From Cereibacter sphaeroides 2.4.1 (GTDB lineage Bacteria; Pseudomonadota; Alphaproteobacteria; Rhodobacterales; Rhodobacteraceae): a DNA stretch of 32,000 bases. The stretch covers positions 2,670,001 through 2,702,000 of the forward strand of contig NC_007493.2 in assembly GCF_000012905.2 (NCBI RefSeq). Reading direction: 5' to 3'. The translations under genes and the position numbers were made by a program. This document shows, piece after piece, positions 17,387 to 31,738 of the stretch. The notes beneath the pieces were generated by a model. It did no database searches. It saw only the letters and a program-made list of their open reading frames with translations, and was not told where the DNA came from. Every line of letters starts with the position of its first letter. Position 1 is the first letter of the stretch.

Positions 17387-17461
17387 GGGCGGGTAGCTCA
17401 GTGGTAGAGCAGCTGACTTTTAATCAGCTGGTCGTGGGTTCGATACCCACCCCGCTCACCA
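17387..17461 (+). tRNA. tRNA-Lys (anticodon UUU)
   Basis: Hand-folded cloverleaf. The acceptor GGGCGGG pairs with CCCGCTC (one G-U). D arm is GCTC/GAGC. Anticodon stem is GCTGA/TCAGC with loop CTTTTAA. T arm is GTGGG-TTCGATA-CCCAC. Discriminator A and an encoded CCA follow. 75 nt. Confidence 0.95.
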
Positions 17462-17564: not shown

Positions 17565-17590
17565 GGAACCCCGCCTCTGCCGGGCGCGTT
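17565..17590 (+). promoter_or_regulatory. ECF-sigma (EcfG/general-stress type) promoter motif upstream of the TreS-like gene
   Basis: GGAAC (17565-17569), a 17-nt spacer, then CGTT (17587-17590). This is an exact match to the GGAAC-N16/17-CGTT consensus known for alphaproteobacterial EcfG-type sigma factors. It lies 51 nt upstream of ATG 17641. The site is also a dyad (GGAAC-N18-GTTCC). Confidence 0.5.
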
Positions 17591-17640
17591 CCCTTGCGTG
17601 ATCTAGGGAGGTGAACGATGCGGATCTGGGCAGGCTGAGG

Positions 17641-19287
17641 ATGGATATCAGCCGCACGAGCGATGTCTGGTGGAAGAACGCCGTCTTCTATTGTCTCGAT
17701 GTCGAGACCTTTCAGGACAGCAACGGCGACGGGATCGGAGATTTCGCGGGGCTGACCCGGCGGCTCGACCATCTCGACCGGCTGGGGGTGAGCTGCATCT
17801 GGCTGATGCCCTTCTATCCCAGCCCGAACCAGGACGATGGCTACGACATCACCGACTATTACTCCGTCGATCCCCGCCTCGGCACGCTGGGCGATTTCGT
17901 CGAGTTCCTGCGCGCGGCCCATGACCGCGGGATGCGGGTGATCGCGGACCTCGTGGTGAACCACACCTCGCGCGAGCATCCGTGGTTCCAAGCCTCGCGC
18001 GCCGATCCCGATTCGCCCTACCGCGACTGGTATGTCTGGCGCGATGAGAAACCCGACGAGGATGCCGCCTCGCTGGTCTTCCCCGGAGAAGAGAACAGCA
18101 GCTGGACCTGGGACGCGAAGGCGGGGAAATACTATCTCCACCGCTTCTACAGCCACCAGCCGGACCTGAATGTCGAGAACCGCGCGGTGCGCGACGAGAT
18201 CCAGCGGATCGTGGGCTTCTGGCTCCAGCTCGGCCTGTCGGGCTTCCGCGTGGATGCCGTGCCCTTCCTGCTCGAGCAGATGTCGACGGTGGACACGGGC
18301 TTCGCGCCGCACCGCTGGCTGCGCGACCTGCGCGCCTTCATCAACCGCCGGTCGGGCGATGCGGTGCTTCTGGGCGAGGTGAACCTCGACTACCCGGACG
18401 TGCGCCGCTTCTTCGGCGACGAGGATGGCGACGAGCTGCACATGTGCCTCGACTTCAACCTCAATCAGGCGATGGCGCTGGCGCTGGCCCGCGAGGATGC
18501 GGGGCCCATCGTCCACGGGCTGCGCCACATGCCCGAACTCGCGCCCGACGATGGCTGGGCGCATTTCCTGCGCAATCACGACGAATGGTCGCTCGACAAG
18601 CTGACCGAGGCCGAGCGGCAGGAGGTCTTCGCCTCCTTCGGGCCCGATCCCTCGATGCAGCTCTTCGGACGCGGCCTGCGGCGGCGGATGCCCACCATGC
18701 TGAAGGGCAATCCCGACCGGCTGCGGATGGCCTATGCGCTGATGGCCTCGATGCCGGGCTCACCCGTGATCTTCTATGGCGAGGAGATCGGCATGGCGGA
18801 AAATCTCGAGATCCCCGGACGGCTCGCCGTGCGCGCGCCGATGCAGTGGGATGCCGGCCCGCATGGCGGTTTCTCGAACGCGAGCACCGAGGCCCTGCAC
18901 CGGCCCATGGTCTCGGATCCGCAATGGGGACCCGGGAAGGTCAATGCCATCGACCAGCAGGACCGGCCGGACACGATGTTCCACTTCATGGAGCATCTCC
19001 TGCGGCGGCGGCGGGAGTGCCCCGAGATCGCCTTCGGCGAGCATGCCGTGCTGCCGTTTCCCGAGCCCGAGATCTTCGCCATCCGGCACGACTGGGAGGG
19101 CCGTACGCTCATCGCTCTCGCCAATCTCGGCGCAAAGCCGCAGAAGGTGACGCTCACGCTGCCGAAGGCCTCGGGGCTGGGCAGGCTGCGGCCCATCCTC
19201 GGCGAGGGGAAGGTCTCGCTGCGCAAAGACGAGCTGACGGTCGAGCTCGGGGGCTACGGGCTGCGCTGGGTGCGGTTCGAGAGCTGA
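17641..19287 (+). CDS. GH13 alpha-amylase-family enzyme, trehalose synthase (TreS)-like
   Basis: 548 aa from ATG 17641; the track start GTG 17611 is less likely. GH13 blocks are present: WWKNAVFYCLDVETFQDSNGDGIGDFAGL, GMRVIADLVVNHTS and GFRVDAV. The TreS-like string YYLHRFYSHQPDLN is also present. Confidence 0.88.
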   Translation: MDISRTSDVWWKNAVFYCLDVETFQDSNGDGIGDFAGLTRRLDHLDRLGVSCIWLMPFYPSPNQDDGYDITDYYSVDPRLGTLGDFVEFLRAAHDRGMRVIADLVVNHTSREHPWFQASRADPDSPYRDWYVWRDEKPDEDAASLVFPGEENSSWTWDAKAGKYYLHRFYSHQPDLNVENRAVRDEIQRIVGFWLQLGLSGFRVDAVPFLLEQMSTVDTGFAPHRWLRDLRAFINRRSGDAVLLGEVNLDYPDVRRFFGDEDGDELHMCLDFNLNQAMALALAREDAGPIVHGLRHMPELAPDDGWAHFLRNHDEWSLDKLTEAERQEVFASFGPDPSMQLFGRGLRRRMPTMLKGNPDRLRMAYALMASMPGSPVIFYGEEIGMAENLEIPGRLAVRAPMQWDAGPHGGFSNASTEALHRPMVSDPQWGPGKVNAIDQQDRPDTMFHFMEHLLRRRRECPEIAFGEHAVLPFPEPEIFAIRHDWEGRTLIALANLGAKPQKVTLTLPKASGLGRLRPILGEGKVSLRKDELTVELGGYGLRWVRFES

Positions 19288-19313: not shown

Positions 19314-19339
19314 GGAACATCCGCCCCGAGCCTCCGGTT
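19314..19339 (+). promoter_or_regulatory. ECF-sigma (EcfG-type) promoter motif upstream of the tiny-ORF pair
   Basis: GGAAC (19314-19318), N16, then CGGTT (19335-19339). This reads as GGAAC-N17-GGTT, one mismatch from CGTT. It lies 42 nt upstream of ATG 19381. Confidence 0.45.
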
Positions 19340-19380: not shown

Positions 19381-19608
19381 ATGGCACATGCGGACAAGAA
19401 GCACTTCGGTCAGGGCGTGCAGGGCAAGGGCGATGGCACCGGCGCCATGACCGAGGCCGACACCGCCGAGATCCCGGCCAATGGCGTGCTGTCCAACCGC
19501 GACAAGCAGGGCAGCGAAAGCCGCGGCAAGGACGGAGGCTACGTCAAGACGCAGCAGTATCAGGACCATGCCGGCAACCGCAGGACCGACGACGAGGATC
19601 GCCCATGA
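19381..19608 (+). CDS. Small hydrophilic protein (75 aa), hypothetical
   Basis: AAAGGAGG (19368-19375) lies 5 nt before ATG 19381. Sequence: MAHADKKHFGQGVQGKGDGTGAMTEADTAEIPANGVLSNRDKQGSESRGKDGGYVKTQQYQDHAGNRRTDDEDRP. It has no hydrophobic segment and is Gly/Lys/Asp/Gln-rich. The track ORF 19309-19608 has no ribosome-binding site at its own start. Confidence 0.5.
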   Translation: MAHADKKHFGQGVQGKGDGTGAMTEADTAEIPANGVLSNRDKQGSESRGKDGGYVKTQQYQDHAGNRRTDDEDRP

Positions 19609-19697
19609 CCGCGAAGACGCCCCCCATTCCGCCCGCGAACCGCAGCGACAAGGGCCCCGGCGGCCCGGCCCACGAGGCGCCGCCGGACGGGAAATGA
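19605..19697 (+). CDS. Very small protein (30 aa), hypothetical, translationally coupled
   Basis: ATGA overlap with the previous stop. Sequence: MTAKTPPIPPANRSDKGPGGPAHEAPPDGK. Too short for the ORF track. A strong terminator hairpin follows immediately. Confidence 0.3.
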   Translation: MTAKTPPIPPANRSDKGPGGPAHEAPPDGK

Positions 19698-26214: not shown

Positions 26215-27840
26215 TCAGGTCAGATCCTCGGGCTTCAGCGGCAGATCGTCGTGCAAGGGCACCGTCTGGCGCTCGATCATCCGGCGCACCCGCGGCTTGC
26301 CCGGCCCTGCGTGCAGCGCGAGCAGCCGGTCCGTCACCTCGGCATCCGCCTTCGTCCGCCGCTCGTGGTGGCGCAGATATTCCGCCCAGGTCGCGACATG
26401 GTAGCTTTCGGCCCAGATCCCCGGCCGCTCCAGATCGCGCAACAGCACCCACTGCCGCGCCCCGTCCCGGATCCGGATCCGGCGCCGGTCCGCCATGGCG
26501 GCGAGGAACTCGTCCACATTCTCGGGCACCACGTCATATTCGACCGTCACCATGATCGGCCCCGAGCGCATGCGCAGGTCCACCGGCAGGCTCGGCTCAA
26601 CGAACCGCCCCAGCGGATCGAGATCCTGCATCCCGAAGGCCGGCAGCGGCATCCGCAGCCCCACCAGCGCCCCCAGCACGAGGACACCGGCCGCCCCGAA
26701 CAGGGCCCCGTCCACGCCGCCCGCCTCGGCCGCCTGCCCCCAGAGGAAGCTGCCCGCCGCCATCCCGCCGAAAGTGGCGGTCTGATAGAGGGCCAGCGCC
26801 CGCCCCACGACCCAGCGCGGCGTGGCGAGCTGCACGCTCACATTGAACAGCGACAAGGCCAGCACCCAGGCCGCCCCCGCCGGCAGGAGCATGAGCCCCG
26901 ACAGCCACAGCGCGCGCGACAGGCCGAGCCCGGTCAGCGCCAGCGCGAAGATCACGAAGCCCGCCCGCACGATGGTCTCGTTCTGGAACCGCTCGCGCAG
27001 GCGCGCGCCGGCGAAGGCGCCGCCGATGGCGCCCACCCCGAAACAGCCCAGAAGCACGCCATAGGTGAAGGCGCCCCCGCCCACGAGGTCGCGCGCGACG
27101 ACAGGCAGCAGCGCAAGCAGGCTCACCGCCGCAAGGCCGAAGAGGAAGCCGCGGAAGAGCACCTTGAGCAGGATGGGCGACATCGAGACATAGCGCAGGC
27201 CCGCGGCCACGGCCGATCCCAGCGTCTCGCGCGGCAGCCGCCGCGGCGCATAGTCGGGCCGCCAGAGAAAGAGCGTGAGGACCAGCGGCAGATAGCTCGC
27301 CGCATTGATCGCGAAGGCCGCCGCCGCGCCACCCGCCGCTACGATGATCCCGCCCAGCGCGGGGCCCACGCTCCGCATCAGGTTGAAGCCCATGCTGTTC
27401 AGCGCGACCGCCGACGGCAGGTCCTTGCGGGGCACGATGTCGCCGACCGAGGCCTGCCACGAAGGGTTGTGCAGCGCCACGCCCGCGCCGATCAGGAAGG
27501 TGAAGGTCAGCAAGAGCCACGGCGTCAGCAGATCCGCGAAGGCCGCCAGCGCCAGCGCCGCCGAGGCCGTCAGCATGAAGAGCTGCGCCGTCAGCATCAG
27601 GCGCCGCCGGTTGAGGCTGTCGGCCAGCGCGCCCGAGGGCAGCGAGAAGAGCATGATCGGCAGGGTCGTCGAGGCCTGCACCAGCGCCACCATCCCGGCG
27701 GAATGGGTGAGCTCGGTCATCATCCAGCCTGCGCCCACCGCCTGCACCAGCCCGCCGAAGTTCGAGACGATGCTCGCCATCCAGAGGTTGCGGTAGGTGG
27801 GCAGGCGGAAGGGCGCGAGGGGAGAGACACGGTCGGGCAA
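26215..27840 (-). CDS. MFS transporter (12-TM core) with a ~135-aa soluble C-terminal domain
   Basis: Part of track ORF 26215-28020. The likely start is TTG 27840, with AGAAGG 7 nt upstream; ATG 27780 is the alternative. The hydrophobic core starts FRLPTYRNLWMASIVSNFGGLVQAVGAGWMM. The C-terminal tail (IMVTVEYDVVPENVDEFLAAMADRRRIRIRDGARQWVLLRDLERPGIWAESYHVATWAEYLRHHERRT) looks like a small alpha/beta (ABM/Dabb-like) domain. Confidence 0.85.
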   Translation of the reverse strand: MPDRVSPLAPFRLPTYRNLWMASIVSNFGGLVQAVGAGWMMTELTHSAGMVALVQASTTLPIMLFSLPSGALADSLNRRRLMLTAQLFMLTASAALALAAFADLLTPWLLLTFTFLIGAGVALHNPSWQASVGDIVPRKDLPSAVALNSMGFNLMRSVGPALGGIIVAAGGAAAAFAINAASYLPLVLTLFLWRPDYAPRRLPRETLGSAVAAGLRYVSMSPILLKVLFRGFLFGLAAVSLLALLPVVARDLVGGGAFTYGVLLGCFGVGAIGGAFAGARLRERFQNETIVRAGFVIFALALTGLGLSRALWLSGLMLLPAGAAWVLALSLFNVSVQLATPRWVVGRALALYQTATFGGMAAGSFLWGQAAEAGGVDGALFGAAGVLVLGALVGLRMPLPAFGMQDLDPLGRFVEPSLPVDLRMRSGPIMVTVEYDVVPENVDEFLAAMADRRRIRIRDGARQWVLLRDLERPGIWAESYHVATWAEYLRHHERRTKADAEVTDRLLALHAGPGKPRVRRMIERQTVPLHDDLPLKPEDLT

Positions 27841-27951
27841 GGGAGAACCTTCTGTCGGGCCGGCTGCCCCATGGGATAGGTCGCGCGAGGGCGGCTGACA
27901 AGGGAGGGCCCCTCCGGAGCCCCGCAGGCGCCCTCGGCGCGCCCGCGATCC

Positions 27952-27977
27952 AACGCCGGGAACCCTCGGCCCGTTCC
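27952..27977 (-). promoter_or_regulatory. ECF-sigma (EcfG-type) promoter motif directed toward the MFS gene
   Basis: The minus strand reads GGAAC (27977->27973), N16, then GCGTT (27956->27952), so CGTT sits after a 17-nt spacer, an exact consensus match. It lies 112 nt upstream of TTG 27840. Confidence 0.45.
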
Positions 27978-27984
27978 GCCGGTT
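27959..27984 (+). promoter_or_regulatory. ECF-sigma (EcfG-type) promoter motif directed toward the topoisomerase IB gene
   Basis: GGAAC (27959-27963), N16, then CGGTT (27980-27984). It interdigitates with the minus-strand motif: each -35 lies inside the other's spacer. It lies 155 nt upstream of GTG 28139. Confidence 0.45.
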
Positions 27985-28138
27985 GAGCGCGGCGACAGGC
28001 AACCGCGGGTGCGGGGCCATGTCCGGGACGGGGCGGACGGGTCCGACCCTCCCGGCGCGGCAACGACCCGCAGACGGTCATCTTCGCCGGACGTCGGGGC
28101 GGCAGAGGCCGCAGGCCGGATCACAGGAGGGCTGCAAG

Positions 28139-29173
28139 GTGAAGGATGGCTGCGTTCTGGTCGAGATGTCGGACGGCAGCGAGGCCACCGTGCCGCGCGG
28201 CCTCGTCTATGTCACCGATGCCGAGCCGGGCATCACCCGGCGGCGCTGCGGGCGCGGCTTCGTCTTCCGCGGCCCCGACGGCAGGCTTCTGGACCGCGCC
28301 GAGCGCGCACGGATCCTGCGCCTCGGGGTTCCGCCCGCCTACGAGAAGGTGTGGATCTGCCCGCTCGAGAACGGCCATCTGCAGGCCACCGGGTTCGATG
28401 CGCGCGGGCGCAAGCAGTATCGCTACCACCCCGACTGGGGCAGCTGGCGGTCGCAGGCGAAATACGCCCTCCTGCCGGCCTTCGGAGAGGCGCTGCCCCG
28501 CCTGCGCCGCCGCGTGGCCCGCGACCTCAAGGCCGAGGCGGGCGAGCTCGCCTTCTCGCTCGCGGCCCTCACCATGCTGATCGACCGGACCTTCCTGCGC
28601 GTGGGCAGCTCGGCCTATGCCGAGGAGAACAAGACCTTCGGCGCCACCACGCTTCTGGCGCGCCATGTGAAGCTCAAGGACGGCGAGGTGCGGCTCGACT
28701 TCCGCGCCAAGGGCGGCAAGCGCGTGCGTCAGGTGCTGAAGGACCGCCGCCTGCACCGCATCCTGCAGGAGATCGAGGACCTGCCGGGCCGCAACCTCTT
28801 CACCTGGATCGACGAGGAGGGCCAGGTGCGGCGCGTGGCCTCGCACCATGTGAACGACTATCTGGCCGAGGCCACGGGCCTTGCCGGCGCCTCGGCCAAG
28901 ACCTTCCGCACCTGGGGCGGCTCGCTCGCTGCCTTCGCCGTGGCCCGGGCGACCGAGGGCAAGCTCACCGTGAAGATGATGGCCGAAGGCGCGGCCGAGC
29001 GGCTGCACAACACGCCGACGATCAGCCGCACCTCCTACATCCATCCCCGGATCCTCGGCCTCGCGGATCTGAAGCCCGACGAGCGGCTCGCGCAGCTCGA
29101 GGCGGTCCAGCCCGCCGACCTGCCCGACCTGCGCAGCGACGAGCGCCGGATGCTCGGCTTCCTGCTGGGCTGA
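28139..29173 (+). CDS. DNA topoisomerase IB (poxvirus/eukaryote-like bacterial TopIB)
   Basis: GTG 28139 has AGGAGGG 7 nt upstream and gives 344 aa. Blocks typical of bacterial TopIB are present: GFVFRGPDGRLL, GFDARGRKQYRYHPDW, TFGATTLLARHV, RLDFRAKGGK, SAKTFRTWGGS. The active-site Tyr context is HNTPTISRTSYIHP. Confidence 0.9.
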   Translation: MKDGCVLVEMSDGSEATVPRGLVYVTDAEPGITRRRCGRGFVFRGPDGRLLDRAERARILRLGVPPAYEKVWICPLENGHLQATGFDARGRKQYRYHPDWGSWRSQAKYALLPAFGEALPRLRRRVARDLKAEAGELAFSLAALTMLIDRTFLRVGSSAYAEENKTFGATTLLARHVKLKDGEVRLDFRAKGGKRVRQVLKDRRLHRILQEIEDLPGRNLFTWIDEEGQVRRVASHHVNDYLAEATGLAGASAKTFRTWGGSLAAFAVARATEGKLTVKMMAEGAAERLHNTPTISRTSYIHPRILGLADLKPDERLAQLEAVQPADLPDLRSDERRMLGFLLG

Positions 29174-29248
29174 CCCCCGGCACAGACGCCGCCGGCACCG
29201 ATCAGCAAGCGCCCAGATGAGCGCTCGGGCGGACATTCATCCGATGGC

Positions 29249-29289
29249 GAAAAACAATTGCGCCGCGCCGGGGAGCGACGGCGCGGCGC
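29249..29289 (-). terminator. Rho-independent terminator of the DUF3008 gene
   Basis: GCGCCGCGCC (29260-29269) pairs with GGCGCGGCGC (29280-29289), a perfect 10-bp stem with a 10-nt loop. On the minus strand it is followed by AATTGTTTTTC. It starts 19 nt after the stop. Confidence 0.65.
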
Positions 29290-29307
29290 AGGCCTCGCTC
29301 GCGCGGA

Positions 29308-29493
29308 TCAGCCGGATTTATGCTCCGGCTTGCCCTTCCGCTCGGTCGCGGCCATTTCCTTCAATTCCTTCTCCGACATGGAGTCCTCCATGCTGCGGGA
29401 GGCTCCCTTCAGATCGCTCTTCTTCGTGTCGCCGCGCTTGGCCGACAGGGCGGCTCCGGCGGCTTTCTGCTGGGCCTTGGACGTCGCTGGCAT
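29308..29493 (-). CDS. DUF3008-family small protein (61 aa)
   Basis: MPATSKAQQKAAGAALSAKRGDTKKSDLKGASRSMEDSMSEKELKEMAATERKGKPEHKSG. The KAQQ.AAGAALSAKRG..KKS.LKGAS string is what I remember for DUF3008. GAGG lies 6 nt upstream of the ATG, and the gene has its own terminator. Confidence 0.7.
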   Translation of the reverse strand: MPATSKAQQKAAGAALSAKRGDTKKSDLKGASRSMEDSMSEKELKEMAATERKGKPEHKSG

Positions 29494-29557
29494 CGCACAC
29501 CTCGCAGGCTCGGATCGTCAGGCTGCCGGGCAGCCCGGCCTCATCCTCTGCGCAGAA

Positions 29558-29582
29558 AACCGCGCCGCGCGCGCCCGGTTCC
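29558..29582 (-). promoter_or_regulatory. ECF-sigma (EcfG-type)-like promoter motif toward DUF3008 (spacer one nt shorter)
   Basis: The minus strand reads GGAAC (29582->29578), N15, then CGGTTTT (from 29562 downward), i.e. GGAAC-N16-GGTT. It lies about 65 nt upstream of ATG 29493. Confidence 0.3.
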
Positions 29583-29590
29583 CGCGGCGG

Positions 29591-29611
29591 CTCGCCTTTC
29601 GGGCGAGTTTT
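29591..29611 (+). terminator. Small terminator-like hairpin plus T-tract between the divergent promoters
   Basis: CTCGCC (29591-29596), tttcg loop, GGCGAG (29602-29607), then TTTT (29608-29611). The T-tract is the beginning of 19-nt repeat copy B. Confidence 0.3.
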
Positions 29612-29626
29612 CCGTGACAGGCAGGT
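29608..29626 (+). repeat. 19-nt direct repeat, copy B (TTTTCCGTGACAGGCAGGT)
   Basis: 17 of 19 positions match 17462-17480, in the same orientation. It lies 44 nt upstream of the GGAAC at 29670. Confidence 0.6.
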
Positions 29627-29669
29627 TTCCGGCCCCGCTCGGCGGGATGCCGCCGACATGAGCCCAGCC

Positions 29670-29695
29670 GGAACCTCCCCGAGGCCAGCGCGGTT
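29670..29695 (+). promoter_or_regulatory. ECF-sigma (EcfG-type) promoter motif upstream of the DUF4142 gene
   Basis: GGAAC (29670-29674), N16, then CGGTT (29691-29695). This is the same architecture as the sites at 19314 and 27959. It lies 54 nt upstream of ATG 29749. Confidence 0.45.
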
Positions 29696-29748
29696 GATCC
29701 CCTGTCCAGCGCGACGATGATGCGATCCGAAGTTCCCGGAGTCGAAAG

Positions 29749-30325: not shown

Positions 30326-31738
30326 TCAATCGCTCTCTCGGGTGAGGGCACCGTTGTCCTCGGGCGCCTCGTTCAGGGCGGCGAGGAACGTGCGGCACCA
30401 CCAGAGCACATCGTGGGACTCGAGATGATCCATCATGCGCCGCCAGCGCGCGATCCGCTCGTCGAGCGGCATCGAGAGCGCACGGCCGATGGCCCCCGCC
30501 GTCTGCTCGGTGTCGTAGGGGTTGATGAAGATGGCCCCGTCCAGTTCGCGCGCGGCGCCCGCGAAGCGCGAGAGGATGAGGACGCCCGGATCGGCCGGAT
30601 CCTGCGAGGCCACATATTCCTTGGCCACCAGGTTCATCCCGTCGCGGAGCGGCGTGACGAGCCCCACTTTCGCCAGCCGGTAGAGGCCCGCCAGCACAGG
30701 CCGGGTGAGCGACTGGTTCACATAGCGGATGGGCACCCACTCGATGGTGCCGTGCGCGCCGTTCACCCGGCCGCAATGCGACTCCACCTGCCCCTGCATC
30801 TCGAGATACTCGGGCACGTCCGAGCGCGAGTGGGGCGCCACCTGCAGCAGCGTGACCTTGCCCGCCTGATCGGGATTGCGCATCAGATACCGCTCGAACG
30901 CGTCGATCCGCGCGGCGATGCCCTTGGAATAGTCGAGCCGGTCAACCCCGATGATGAGCGAACTGCCATGCAGGCTCTGCTGCATGTCGGTGACCAGATC
31001 GAGCCCGTCCGTCTTGGCCGCGAGCCGCGCGAAATCCCCGGTCTCGATGCCGATGGGGAAGGCCGCGGCCGCCACCTCCTTGTCGAAGGCGCGGAGCCAG
31101 CCCGGCGTCGACCAGTCGCCCCAGCCCTCGCGGCGCAGACAACCCACGAAATTGTCGAGATCGTAGTCGGTCTGGAACCCCACGAGGTCGTAGGCCGCAA
31201 GGCCCCGCATGATGATCTCGTAGACCGGCAGAGCGGTCAGGATGTCGGCCGGGGGCCATGGAATGTGGAGGAAGAAGCCGATCCGGTTGCGCACGCCGCG
31301 CTTGCGCAGCTCCTGCGCCAGCGGGATCAGGTGGTAATCATGCACCCAGATCACGTCGTCGGGCTCGAGCATCGGCACCAGACGGTCGGCGAACAGGCGA
31401 TTGACGCGGAAATAGCCCGCCATCTCCTGCCGCGCATATTCGGCCAGATCGAGACGGCAGTGGAAGATCGGCCAGAGCACCCGGTTGGCGAAGCCGTTGT
31501 AATATTCGTCGAGGTCCGCCTGCGAAAGGTCGGTCAGCACATAGCTGATCTTGTCCTGCTCCAGCGTGGTCAGGCCCTGCGGCTCCTCCTCGCCGGTCGA
31601 GCGGCCCGACCAGCCCATCCAGATCCCGCCGTTCTTGCGCAGCGCGGCATGGACGGCGACGGCCAGCCCGCCGGGCGGCGGGTTGCCGTTCTCGTCCGGC
31701 AGCGGCACGCGGTTCGAGACGACGACGAGACGACTCAT
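30326..31738 (-). CDS. otsA: Alpha,alpha-trehalose-phosphate synthase (GT20)
   Basis: 470 aa. MSRLVVVSNRVP, WVHDYHLIPLA, GFFLHIPWP, VDRLDYSKGI and LVTPLRDGMNLVAKEY are canonical OtsA blocks. ATGA overlap with otsB. Confidence 0.95.
   Translation of the reverse strand: MSRLVVVSNRVPLPDENGNPPPGGLAVAVHAALRKNGGIWMGWSGRSTGEEEPQGLTTLEQDKISYVLTDLSQADLDEYYNGFANRVLWPIFHCRLDLAEYARQEMAGYFRVNRLFADRLVPMLEPDDVIWVHDYHLIPLAQELRKRGVRNRIGFFLHIPWPPADILTALPVYEIIMRGLAAYDLVGFQTDYDLDNFVGCLRREGWGDWSTPGWLRAFDKEVAAAAFPIGIETGDFARLAAKTDGLDLVTDMQQSLHGSSLIIGVDRLDYSKGIAARIDAFERYLMRNPDQAGKVTLLQVAPHSRSDVPEYLEMQGQVESHCGRVNGAHGTIEWVPIRYVNQSLTRPVLAGLYRLAKVGLVTPLRDGMNLVAKEYVASQDPADPGVLILSRFAGAARELDGAIFINPYDTEQTAGAIGRALSMPLDERIARWRRMMDHLESHDVLWWCRTFLAALNEAPEDNGALTRESD

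Follow-up and report, generated by a model that had tools for sequence, protein, structure and literature searches.

The near-palindromic promoter motif of EcfG was first proposed to be used in both directions by Staron et al. in 2009, as credited in a later preprint (bioRxiv 10.1101/641647). In Erythrobacter litoralis DSM 8509, RNA-seq supports a GGAAC-N17-GTTCC sequence that drives both nepR-ecfG and gsrP, by a "mechanism not known" (bioRxiv 10.1101/641647). This is a single site, in which the -35 box of one strand is the -10 box of the other (GGAAC-N17/18-GTTCC). Symmetric key elements also coincide on opposite strands in the bidirectional sigma-70 promoters of E. coli and other prokaryotes, as these are outlined in two reports (bioRxiv 10.1101/2020.01.31.928960; PMC12825309). 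In E. coli, competition for RNA polymerase between the two directions is seen only when one of them is strongly activated (PMC12825309).

Rhodobacter (Cereibacter) sphaeroides 2.4.1 encodes PhyR (RSP_1274), a NepR-like protein (RSP_1273) and EcfG (RSP_1272), the sigma factor that the other two control, and its phyR mutant has a membrane-stress phenotype only (PMC5830050). The DNA analysed here is a 32,000-nucleotide stretch of this genome (NC_007493.2, positions 2,670,001 to 2,702,000), referred to below as the window; the PhyR-NepR-EcfG module lies outside it. Between two divergent genes of the window is a 33-bp element which, judging from its comparison across related genomes, probably contains two functional EcfG-type promoters that are interdigitated and point away from each other. 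A literature search for R. sphaeroides yielded no map of transcription starts, EcfG regulon or salt-stress transcriptome that names the two genes.

Organization of the element and its flanking genes

The element (27952-27984) is the 33-mer AACGCCGGGAACCCTCGGCCCGTTCCGCCGGTT, read directly from the window, and lies midway in a 298-bp divergent intergenic region. To its left, on the minus strand, is the gene of an MFS_3 transporter (26215-27840; Pfam MFS_3, E=3.6e-202, residues 6-525); to its right, on the plus strand, is the gene of a DNA topoisomerase IB, TopIB (28139-29173; Pfam Top1B_N_bact and Topoisom_I). An earlier, sequence-only reading of this DNA had named the neighbours as divergent MFS and topoisomerase IB genes, and the Pfam matches back this. 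The true start of MFS_3 is most likely the TTG at 27840, since the Pfam profile begins at residue 6 and the orthologues align from residue 1. The GTG start of TopIB at 28139 is preceded by AGGAGG, and both the GTG and the Shine-Dalgarno sequence are conserved in the orthologues. Two long open reading frames that cover the element, 26215-28020 on the minus strand and 27983-29173 on the plus strand, were rejected on the basis of Pfam coverage, conserved starts and ribosome-binding sites, which place the starts at 27840 and 28139; these long frames are artefacts of the high G+C content.

The TopIB-directed site, on the plus strand, consists of a -35 box GGAAC (27959-27963) and a -10 region CGGTTGA (27980-27986), within which the five-nucleotide box CGGTT occupies 27980-27984. 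The two boxes are separated by 16 nt, an arrangement that is the same as GGAAC-N18-GTT. The MFS_3-directed site, on the minus strand, has its GGAAC box at 27973-27977 (GTTCC on the plus strand) and a -10 region GCGTTG at 27951-27956, with the five-nucleotide box GCGTT reading from 27956 to 27952; its spacer is also 16 nt and it is an exact match to the canonical GGAAC-N17-CGTT. Base-by-base inspection confirmed the earlier description of the two sites, in which each -35 box falls within the spacer of the opposite promoter. The -35 boxes are 14 bp apart, centre to centre, while the -10 boxes are at the outer ends of the core, about 24 bp apart, separate and without overlap. A 9-nt central spacer, CCTCGGCCC (27964-27972), lies between the two -35 boxes and completes a dyad, GGAAC-N9-GTTCC, that spans 27959-27977. 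The -10 box on the minus strand is 112 nt ahead of the MFS_3 start codon, and that on the plus strand is 155 nt ahead of the TopIB start codon. Transcription is predicted to start at about 27990-27998 on the plus strand and at about 27938-27946 on the minus strand, which would place the two starts approximately 45-60 bp apart.

The plus-strand -10 box, CGGTT, departs from the textbook CGTT; it fits the form GGAAC-N17-20-GTT described for Sphingomonas melonis, and several EcfG-dependent targets of this organism carry a CGGTT -10 box (PMC6599016).

The element and the E. litoralis promoter share the sigma family, the boxes and the placement of a short site between divergent GSR genes. The evidence for two-way use is RNA-seq in E. 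litoralis and conservation for the Cereibacter element. In contrast with the single E. litoralis site, the Cereibacter element has four separate boxes and a dyad spacing of 9 (8 in relatives), and the -35 box of one strand does not coincide with the -10 box of the other. In the sigma-70 promoters of Warman and Grainger it is reportedly the -10 hexamers that coincide; the starts lie about 18 bp from each other, and the sigma factor is the housekeeping one. What the element has in common with these promoters is that pseudo-symmetric DNA would engage RNA polymerase either way, one binding event excluding the other. The resemblance is mechanistic only: the element has interleaved -35 boxes and two separate -10 boxes. 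Both directions of the element would, moreover, use one alternative ECF sigma factor and hence be switched on together, unlike the housekeeping sigma-70 case.

A second promoter-like element, CTTGTC-N16-CCTATCCC (27873-27902, minus strand), has the EcfG-type site on one side and the MFS_3 start on the other. It was detected through conservation only: its boxes are conserved, and its spacer is variable, in seven orthologues. It is probably the proximal promoter (P1) of MFS_3, of an RpoH-like or sigma-70-like type, an assignment that is tentative. The consensus of RpoHI/II in R. sphaeroides is TTG/TAT (PMC10673084), so the sequence is compatible with these factors; a sigma-70 consensus scan of 27700-28300 gave no site. 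MFS_3 may thus have two promoters.

The length of the TopIB leader varies, with about 150 nt in both the window and Cereibacter johrii and 36-100 nt in five other orthologues (Rhodobacter sp. NSM, Cereibacter azotoformans, L055, L057 and L058). The extra G+C-rich stretch of the longer leader (27985-28138) is not conserved in the orthologues and has no Rfam match.

Conservation of the element and alternative readings

Expected counts of the motifs were taken from dinucleotide-preserving shuffles of the window, which is 70% G+C. GGAAC-N17-CGTT is found twice in the window compared with 0.09 expected, and the dyad GGAAC-N9-GTTCC once compared with 0.02. The pattern GGAAC-N16-SSGTT occurs six times compared with 0.12, a count that was reached in 0 of 100 shuffles; by arithmetic from the same scan, the chance that a first site is accompanied by another on the opposite strand, no more than about 30 bp away, is approximately 1e-4. 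The element is not a product of chance. A position weight matrix derived from 26 independent sites scores the real sites at 12-17 bits, against a mean maximum of 15.1 in shuffled sequence, and does not separate the two; any single EcfG-type site is therefore weak evidence on its own, and exact-pattern enrichment, position and conservation were used in place of the matrix.

The spacer between MFS_3 and TopIB was compared in seven orthologous regions, namely those of the window, C. johrii (L001), Rhodobacter sp. NSM (L002), C. azotoformans (L007) and three taken from assemblies (L055, L057 and L058). The set represents one clade with roughly five independent lineages, and the TopIB proteins are 74-98% identical; TopIB of the window is 97% identical to its C. 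johrii orthologue, and protein identity between the window and C. johrii is 97-99%. When the spacers are aligned on the dyad, both GGAAC and GTTCC are identical in all seven. The left segment CAACG, which is CGTTG of the MFS_3-directed -10 region, is likewise invariant, as is GGTTGA in the right segment GC(C/T)GGTTGA. The centre varies in sequence and in length: the window and C. johrii have CCTCGGCCC (9 nt), and the five others have 8 nt, with the sequences CCGCACCC, CGGCACCC, CCGCCCGC and CCCGCCGC. In L057 and L058 the 8-nt centre is compensated by one added base, located between GTTCC and CGTT, and the minus-strand spacer stays at 17; all spacings in the orthologues are within the 16-17 nt tolerated by EcfG-type promoters. 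The 30 nt beyond the element show identities of only 32% and 45% on the two sides. The identical 33-mer is also present in a Cereibacter-like contig (L124). Invariant boxes amid drifting spacers are what selection on all four boxes would produce, with the spacers free to change in all but their length. The suggestion that the element comprises two interdigitated ECF-type promoters is therefore the best fit to the comparative data.

The alignment also bears on the alternative that had been offered for the dyad, in which a dimeric transcription factor would bind GGAAC-N9-GTTCC as its operator, with both divergent genes under its control. A perfect 5-bp inverted repeat, at a frequency well above its expectation and between divergent genes, is in a position typical of operators. 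However, the half-sites are 9 bp apart in two orthologues and 8 bp apart in five, a shift of about 36 degrees, whereas an operator needs a fixed spacing. The conserved flanks (GCCG on the left, CGGC on the right) are asymmetric, yet they are placed where -10 boxes belong, and GGAAC-N16-SSGTT sites that form no dyad precede other stress genes in the window as well as TopIB in other genera. Among the flanking genes, Pfam analysis identified no regulator gene adjoining the element. The operator is accordingly disfavoured, and we regard it as very improbable.

The inverted repeat might also act as RNA, forming the hairpin of a leader structure, a terminator or a small RNA; many of the similar patterns in metagenomes are perfect long palindromes (see below). 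Folding of either strand of the element is nevertheless worse than that of shuffled controls (z = +0.96 and +1.11), and the stem would be merely 5-6 bp, with a symmetry that stops before the flanks. A search of the element against Rfam gave no match, and the only terminator-like site reported (28245) is inside the TopIB gene, away from the element. An RNA hairpin is the least credible of the explanations considered and can be given hardly any weight.

Putative general-stress sites in the window and upstream of TopIB in other genera

The six GGAAC-N16-SSGTT matches in the window fall in four places, all of them intergenic and beside typical GSR genes. Two of the four places contain a match on each strand: the element itself, in the spacer between MFS_3 and TopIB (27952 on the minus strand, 27959 on the plus strand), and a site 20 nt before an alpha-amylase-family gene (17565 on the plus strand, 17567 on the minus strand). 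The other two are GGAAC-N16-CGGTT sites on the plus strand, at 19314-19339 before a 75-residue hydrophilic open reading frame and at 29670-29695 before a DUF4142 gene. A looser scan added an EcfG-type site on the minus strand (29558-29582), before a gene for a 61-residue DUF3008 protein (29308-29493, minus strand). The DUF3008 and DUF4142 sites are back to back, 88 bp apart, and the pair is conserved in C. johrii, C. azotoformans and L057; four relatives whose spacers have diverged keep the GGTT variant of the -10 box ahead of DUF4142. The OtsA gene (30326-31738) adjoins this stress cluster. A 167-residue open reading frame in the same region (29217-29720, plus strand) has no Pfam match and is probably spurious.

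The EcfG-dependent genes of S. melonis Fr1 include TopIB, a glycosidase gene and trehalose genes (PMC6599016). The stress-type neighbours in the window are typical members of alphaproteobacterial EcfG regulons.

The site at 17565-17592 has the form GGAACC-N16-GCGTTCC, that is, a GGAAC-N18-GTTCC palindrome of the single-site type seen in E. litoralis, and the alpha-amylase-family gene downstream of it occupies 17611-19287. The minus strand (17567-17592) was not accepted as a genuine divergent promoter; the sole neighbour on the left is a co-directional gene for tRNA-Lys(UUU) (17387-17461), and a leftward transcript would be without an obvious target unless it were an antisense or non-coding RNA.

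The very hydrophilic 75-residue frame begins with an ATG at 19381, has a strong AAAGGAGG Shine-Dalgarno sequence and is followed by a further frame of 30 residues (together 19381-19697). Both precede a DUF72 gene, the true start of which is probably later than listed, as its Pfam match begins at residue 128 of the listed frame.

TopIB is preceded by EcfG-type sites in other Rhodobacterales. Limimaricola, Oceanicola and Salipiger have a one-way GGAAC-N16-GCGTT directly before their TopIB gene. In Frigidibacter the site is GGAAC-N18-GTT with a -10 box GGGTT, in Falsirhodobacter the -10 box is GCAGTT, and in L062 a site with a GGGGTT -10 box lies ahead of an operon of Pyrid_ox_like and TopIB genes. 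In the named genera and their metagenomic relatives the one-way sites precede TopIB, or the operon to which it belongs, by 7-60 nt. The GGAAC-N16-CGGTT form also precedes TopIB in L056 and L003, and the L056 site ends in CCGGTTG, the same as in Cereibacter. In L056 and L059, TopIB is divergent from a different operon (Phage_holin_3_6/DUF3618), with two separate EcfG-type sites that are back to back and 36-42 bp apart; the Cereibacter element resembles the compressed extreme of a series of this type. In S. melonis Fr1, TopIB (gene #1831) is among the top EcfG-dependent genes (PMC6599016). The one-way sites in relatives, together with the EcfG dependence in S. melonis, support TopIB as a conserved member of the GSR regulon. 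The S. melonis, Limimaricola, Salipiger and Oceanicola promoters share the target gene and the motif with Cereibacter and differ in being unidirectional and near the start codon, whereas in Cereibacter a divergent promoter is merged with the TopIB promoter, which is 36-155 nt upstream.

These sites are relevant to the question of whether one promoter alone works, either the minus-strand site for MFS_3 or the plus-strand site for TopIB, with the opposite match a by-product of the near-palindromic motif. The reverse complement of GGAAC contains GTT, and such a by-product has a precedent in the window, where the leftward reading upstream of the alpha-amylase-family gene faces a tRNA gene and has no plausible target. 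The non-canonical -10 box of the plus strand also speaks for this reading, and the data from E. litoralis suggest that one direction is preferred (bioRxiv 10.1101/641647). At the alpha-amylase site, however, the by-product is near-automatic because of the symmetry of GGAAC and GTTCC, whereas interdigitation is not automatic: it takes an additional GGAAC and an additional GTT at the right offsets, some eight more specified bases (a chance of about 1e-4), and those bases are conserved. The four boxes are invariant in the seven orthologues while spacers and flanks drift. If the plus-strand site were absent, TopIB would miss the EcfG-type promoter that is present upstream of its orthologues elsewhere; if the minus-strand site were absent, the conservation of CAACG and GTTCC would be left unexplained. 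A single working promoter is thus an unlikely account of the element.

With respect to the two-promoter reading, both sites show the -35/-10 spacing and the intergenic orientation toward a downstream gene of EcfG-type promoters, and cross-species conservation is found for the TopIB site. The MFS_3-directed motif is conserved within the Cereibacter clade only. Besides the CGGTT box of the plus strand and the restriction of the orthologues to one clade, points against this reading include that MFS_3 is no known EcfG target, that it has another conserved promoter candidate and that the R. sphaeroides phyR mutant is affected under membrane stress only (PMC5830050). That at least one of the two promoters is functional is very likely.

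The same layout at phyR loci and its possible consequences

A metagenome collection was scanned with the pattern AACG-N3/4-GGAAC-N8/9-GTTCC-N3-SGTT, which demands both -10 boxes and gave at least 120 matches. Among the matches listed, most are perfect palindromes unrelated to EcfG, and no frequency can be derived from them. Of the non-palindromic matches of high G+C content that were followed up, three (L090, L093, which is the same as L125, and L113) are located exactly between phyR and the genes of nepR-ecfG and a histidine kinase. The PhyR proteins of these contigs share 61% identity with a Sphingomonas protein. Conservation covers the four boxes but not the bases between them, bearing in mind that both -10 boxes were required by the search pattern itself; L093 has an N8 centre, and L090 and L113 have an N9 centre. 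In all three (2955-3070 in L090, 8376-8480 in L093) there is a second conserved site, GGAAC-N17-CGTTGA, about 70 nt nearer to nepR, a putative tandem EcfG-type promoter for this gene.

Two families of palindromes were seen among the remaining patterns. One is a perfect 14-bp inverted repeat, AACGCCGGGAACAC-N5-GTGTTCCCGGCGTT, with variable 5-nt loops, found in at least twelve contigs of 56-63% G+C, several of which bear JGI-style Ga names; it shares the AACGCCGGGAAC half with the element and looks like a hairpin-type repeat element. The other is a palindromic element, AACGGCAGGAAC-(T6ACG / CGTA6)-GTTCCTGCCGTT, found on either strand in many contigs of about 50-54% G+C (eight recorded, and others), several of them labelled human gut metagenome; in one contig (L115) it occurs twice, 2 kb apart.

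Related arrangements are present at the phyR loci of named genera, which were drawn from a collection of plasmids and chromids. At five loci in Gemmobacter, Dinoroseobacter, Pseudorhodobacter and Roseicitreum, a nested palindrome, GGAACCAAACGC-N9/10-GCGTTTGGTTCC, reads as an EcfG-type promoter both ways and takes up some 32 bp. The left arm in Ketogulonicigenium is GGAACCTAATGC; here an EcfG-type site is present toward phyR only. The phyR locus of Methylobacterium bullatum has a back-to-back pair.

The regions between phyR and nepR-ecfG thus share with the element two EcfG-type promoters within 28-33 bp between divergent genes, and those of L090, L093 and L113 match its geometry exactly, including the N8/N9 variation. 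They differ in serving regulators, where the Cereibacter element serves effector genes; L090, L093 and L113 also add the tandem promoter of nepR, and promoter function at these loci is extrapolated from model organisms. The sequence-only reading had called the architecture unusual, which was an overstatement: bidirectional EcfG promoters are published, and the same interdigitated geometry is found at these loci. The interleaving of the -35 boxes is a new geometry of the known bidirectional EcfG promoter, and one that is not unique to the MFS_3-TopIB locus.

GGAAC-like -35 boxes and GTT-like -10 boxes are recognized by several ECF groups. Both promoters could in principle be real and be the targets of another Cereibacter ECF sigma factor with this specificity, the EcfG regulon of R. 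sphaeroides being undefined and the phenotype of its phyR mutant narrow (PMC5830050). The same motif is, however, found in the autoregulated phyR-nepR-ecfG spacers of Rhodobacterales, the neighbouring targets in the window are classic GSR genes, and TopIB is EcfG-dependent in S. melonis. Recognition by another ECF factor appears improbable, and the sigma factor is most likely of the EcfG (ECF15) general-stress type; the EcfG dependence of both promoters follows by inference from these comparisons.

If both promoters are read by EcfG, the released EcfG holoenzyme would bind the 33-bp core in one orientation or the other. Binding in the rightward orientation, to GGAAC(27959)-N16-CGGTT, would engage the only conserved promoter candidate for TopIB. 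In the leftward orientation, GGAAC(27977)-N16-GCGTT would act as a distal, stress-inducible promoter of MFS_3, beside the proximal RpoH- or sigma-70-like one. Open complexes cover roughly -55 to +20. Two of them at the element would overlap by about 65 bp and therefore should not coexist, and mutually exclusive firing, which had been predicted from the sequence, is a reasonable expectation on steric grounds. The quality of the -10 boxes (GCGTT as compared with CGGTT) may set the share of initiation between the two genes. Since both directions answer to the same sigma factor, competition would partition initiations and would not switch between the genes.

It is conceivable, though we think it doubtful, that the interlocking is a selected regulatory device and not an accident of saving space, with each initiation allotted to either the exporter or the topoisomerase. 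If this were true, the ratio of expression would be fixed through the quality of the -10 boxes and the N8/N9 spacer, and cell-to-cell noise or anticorrelation would be shaped by it; at phyR-nepR-ecfG loci initiation would be divided between the anti-anti-sigma factor and the anti-sigma/sigma operon. The coincident, nested, interdigitated and back-to-back geometries would then be tunable settings of one alphaproteobacterial mechanism.

Bidirectional EcfG promoters are already in the literature, and nothing is overturned by the present analysis. The window provides a cluster of candidate EcfG targets, and an SGGTT variant of the -10 box with which more may be found. The element is a natural test case for the action of one alternative sigma factor on overlapping divergent promoters, and the same layout at phyR-nepR-ecfG loci could bear on the balance of feedback in the general stress response.
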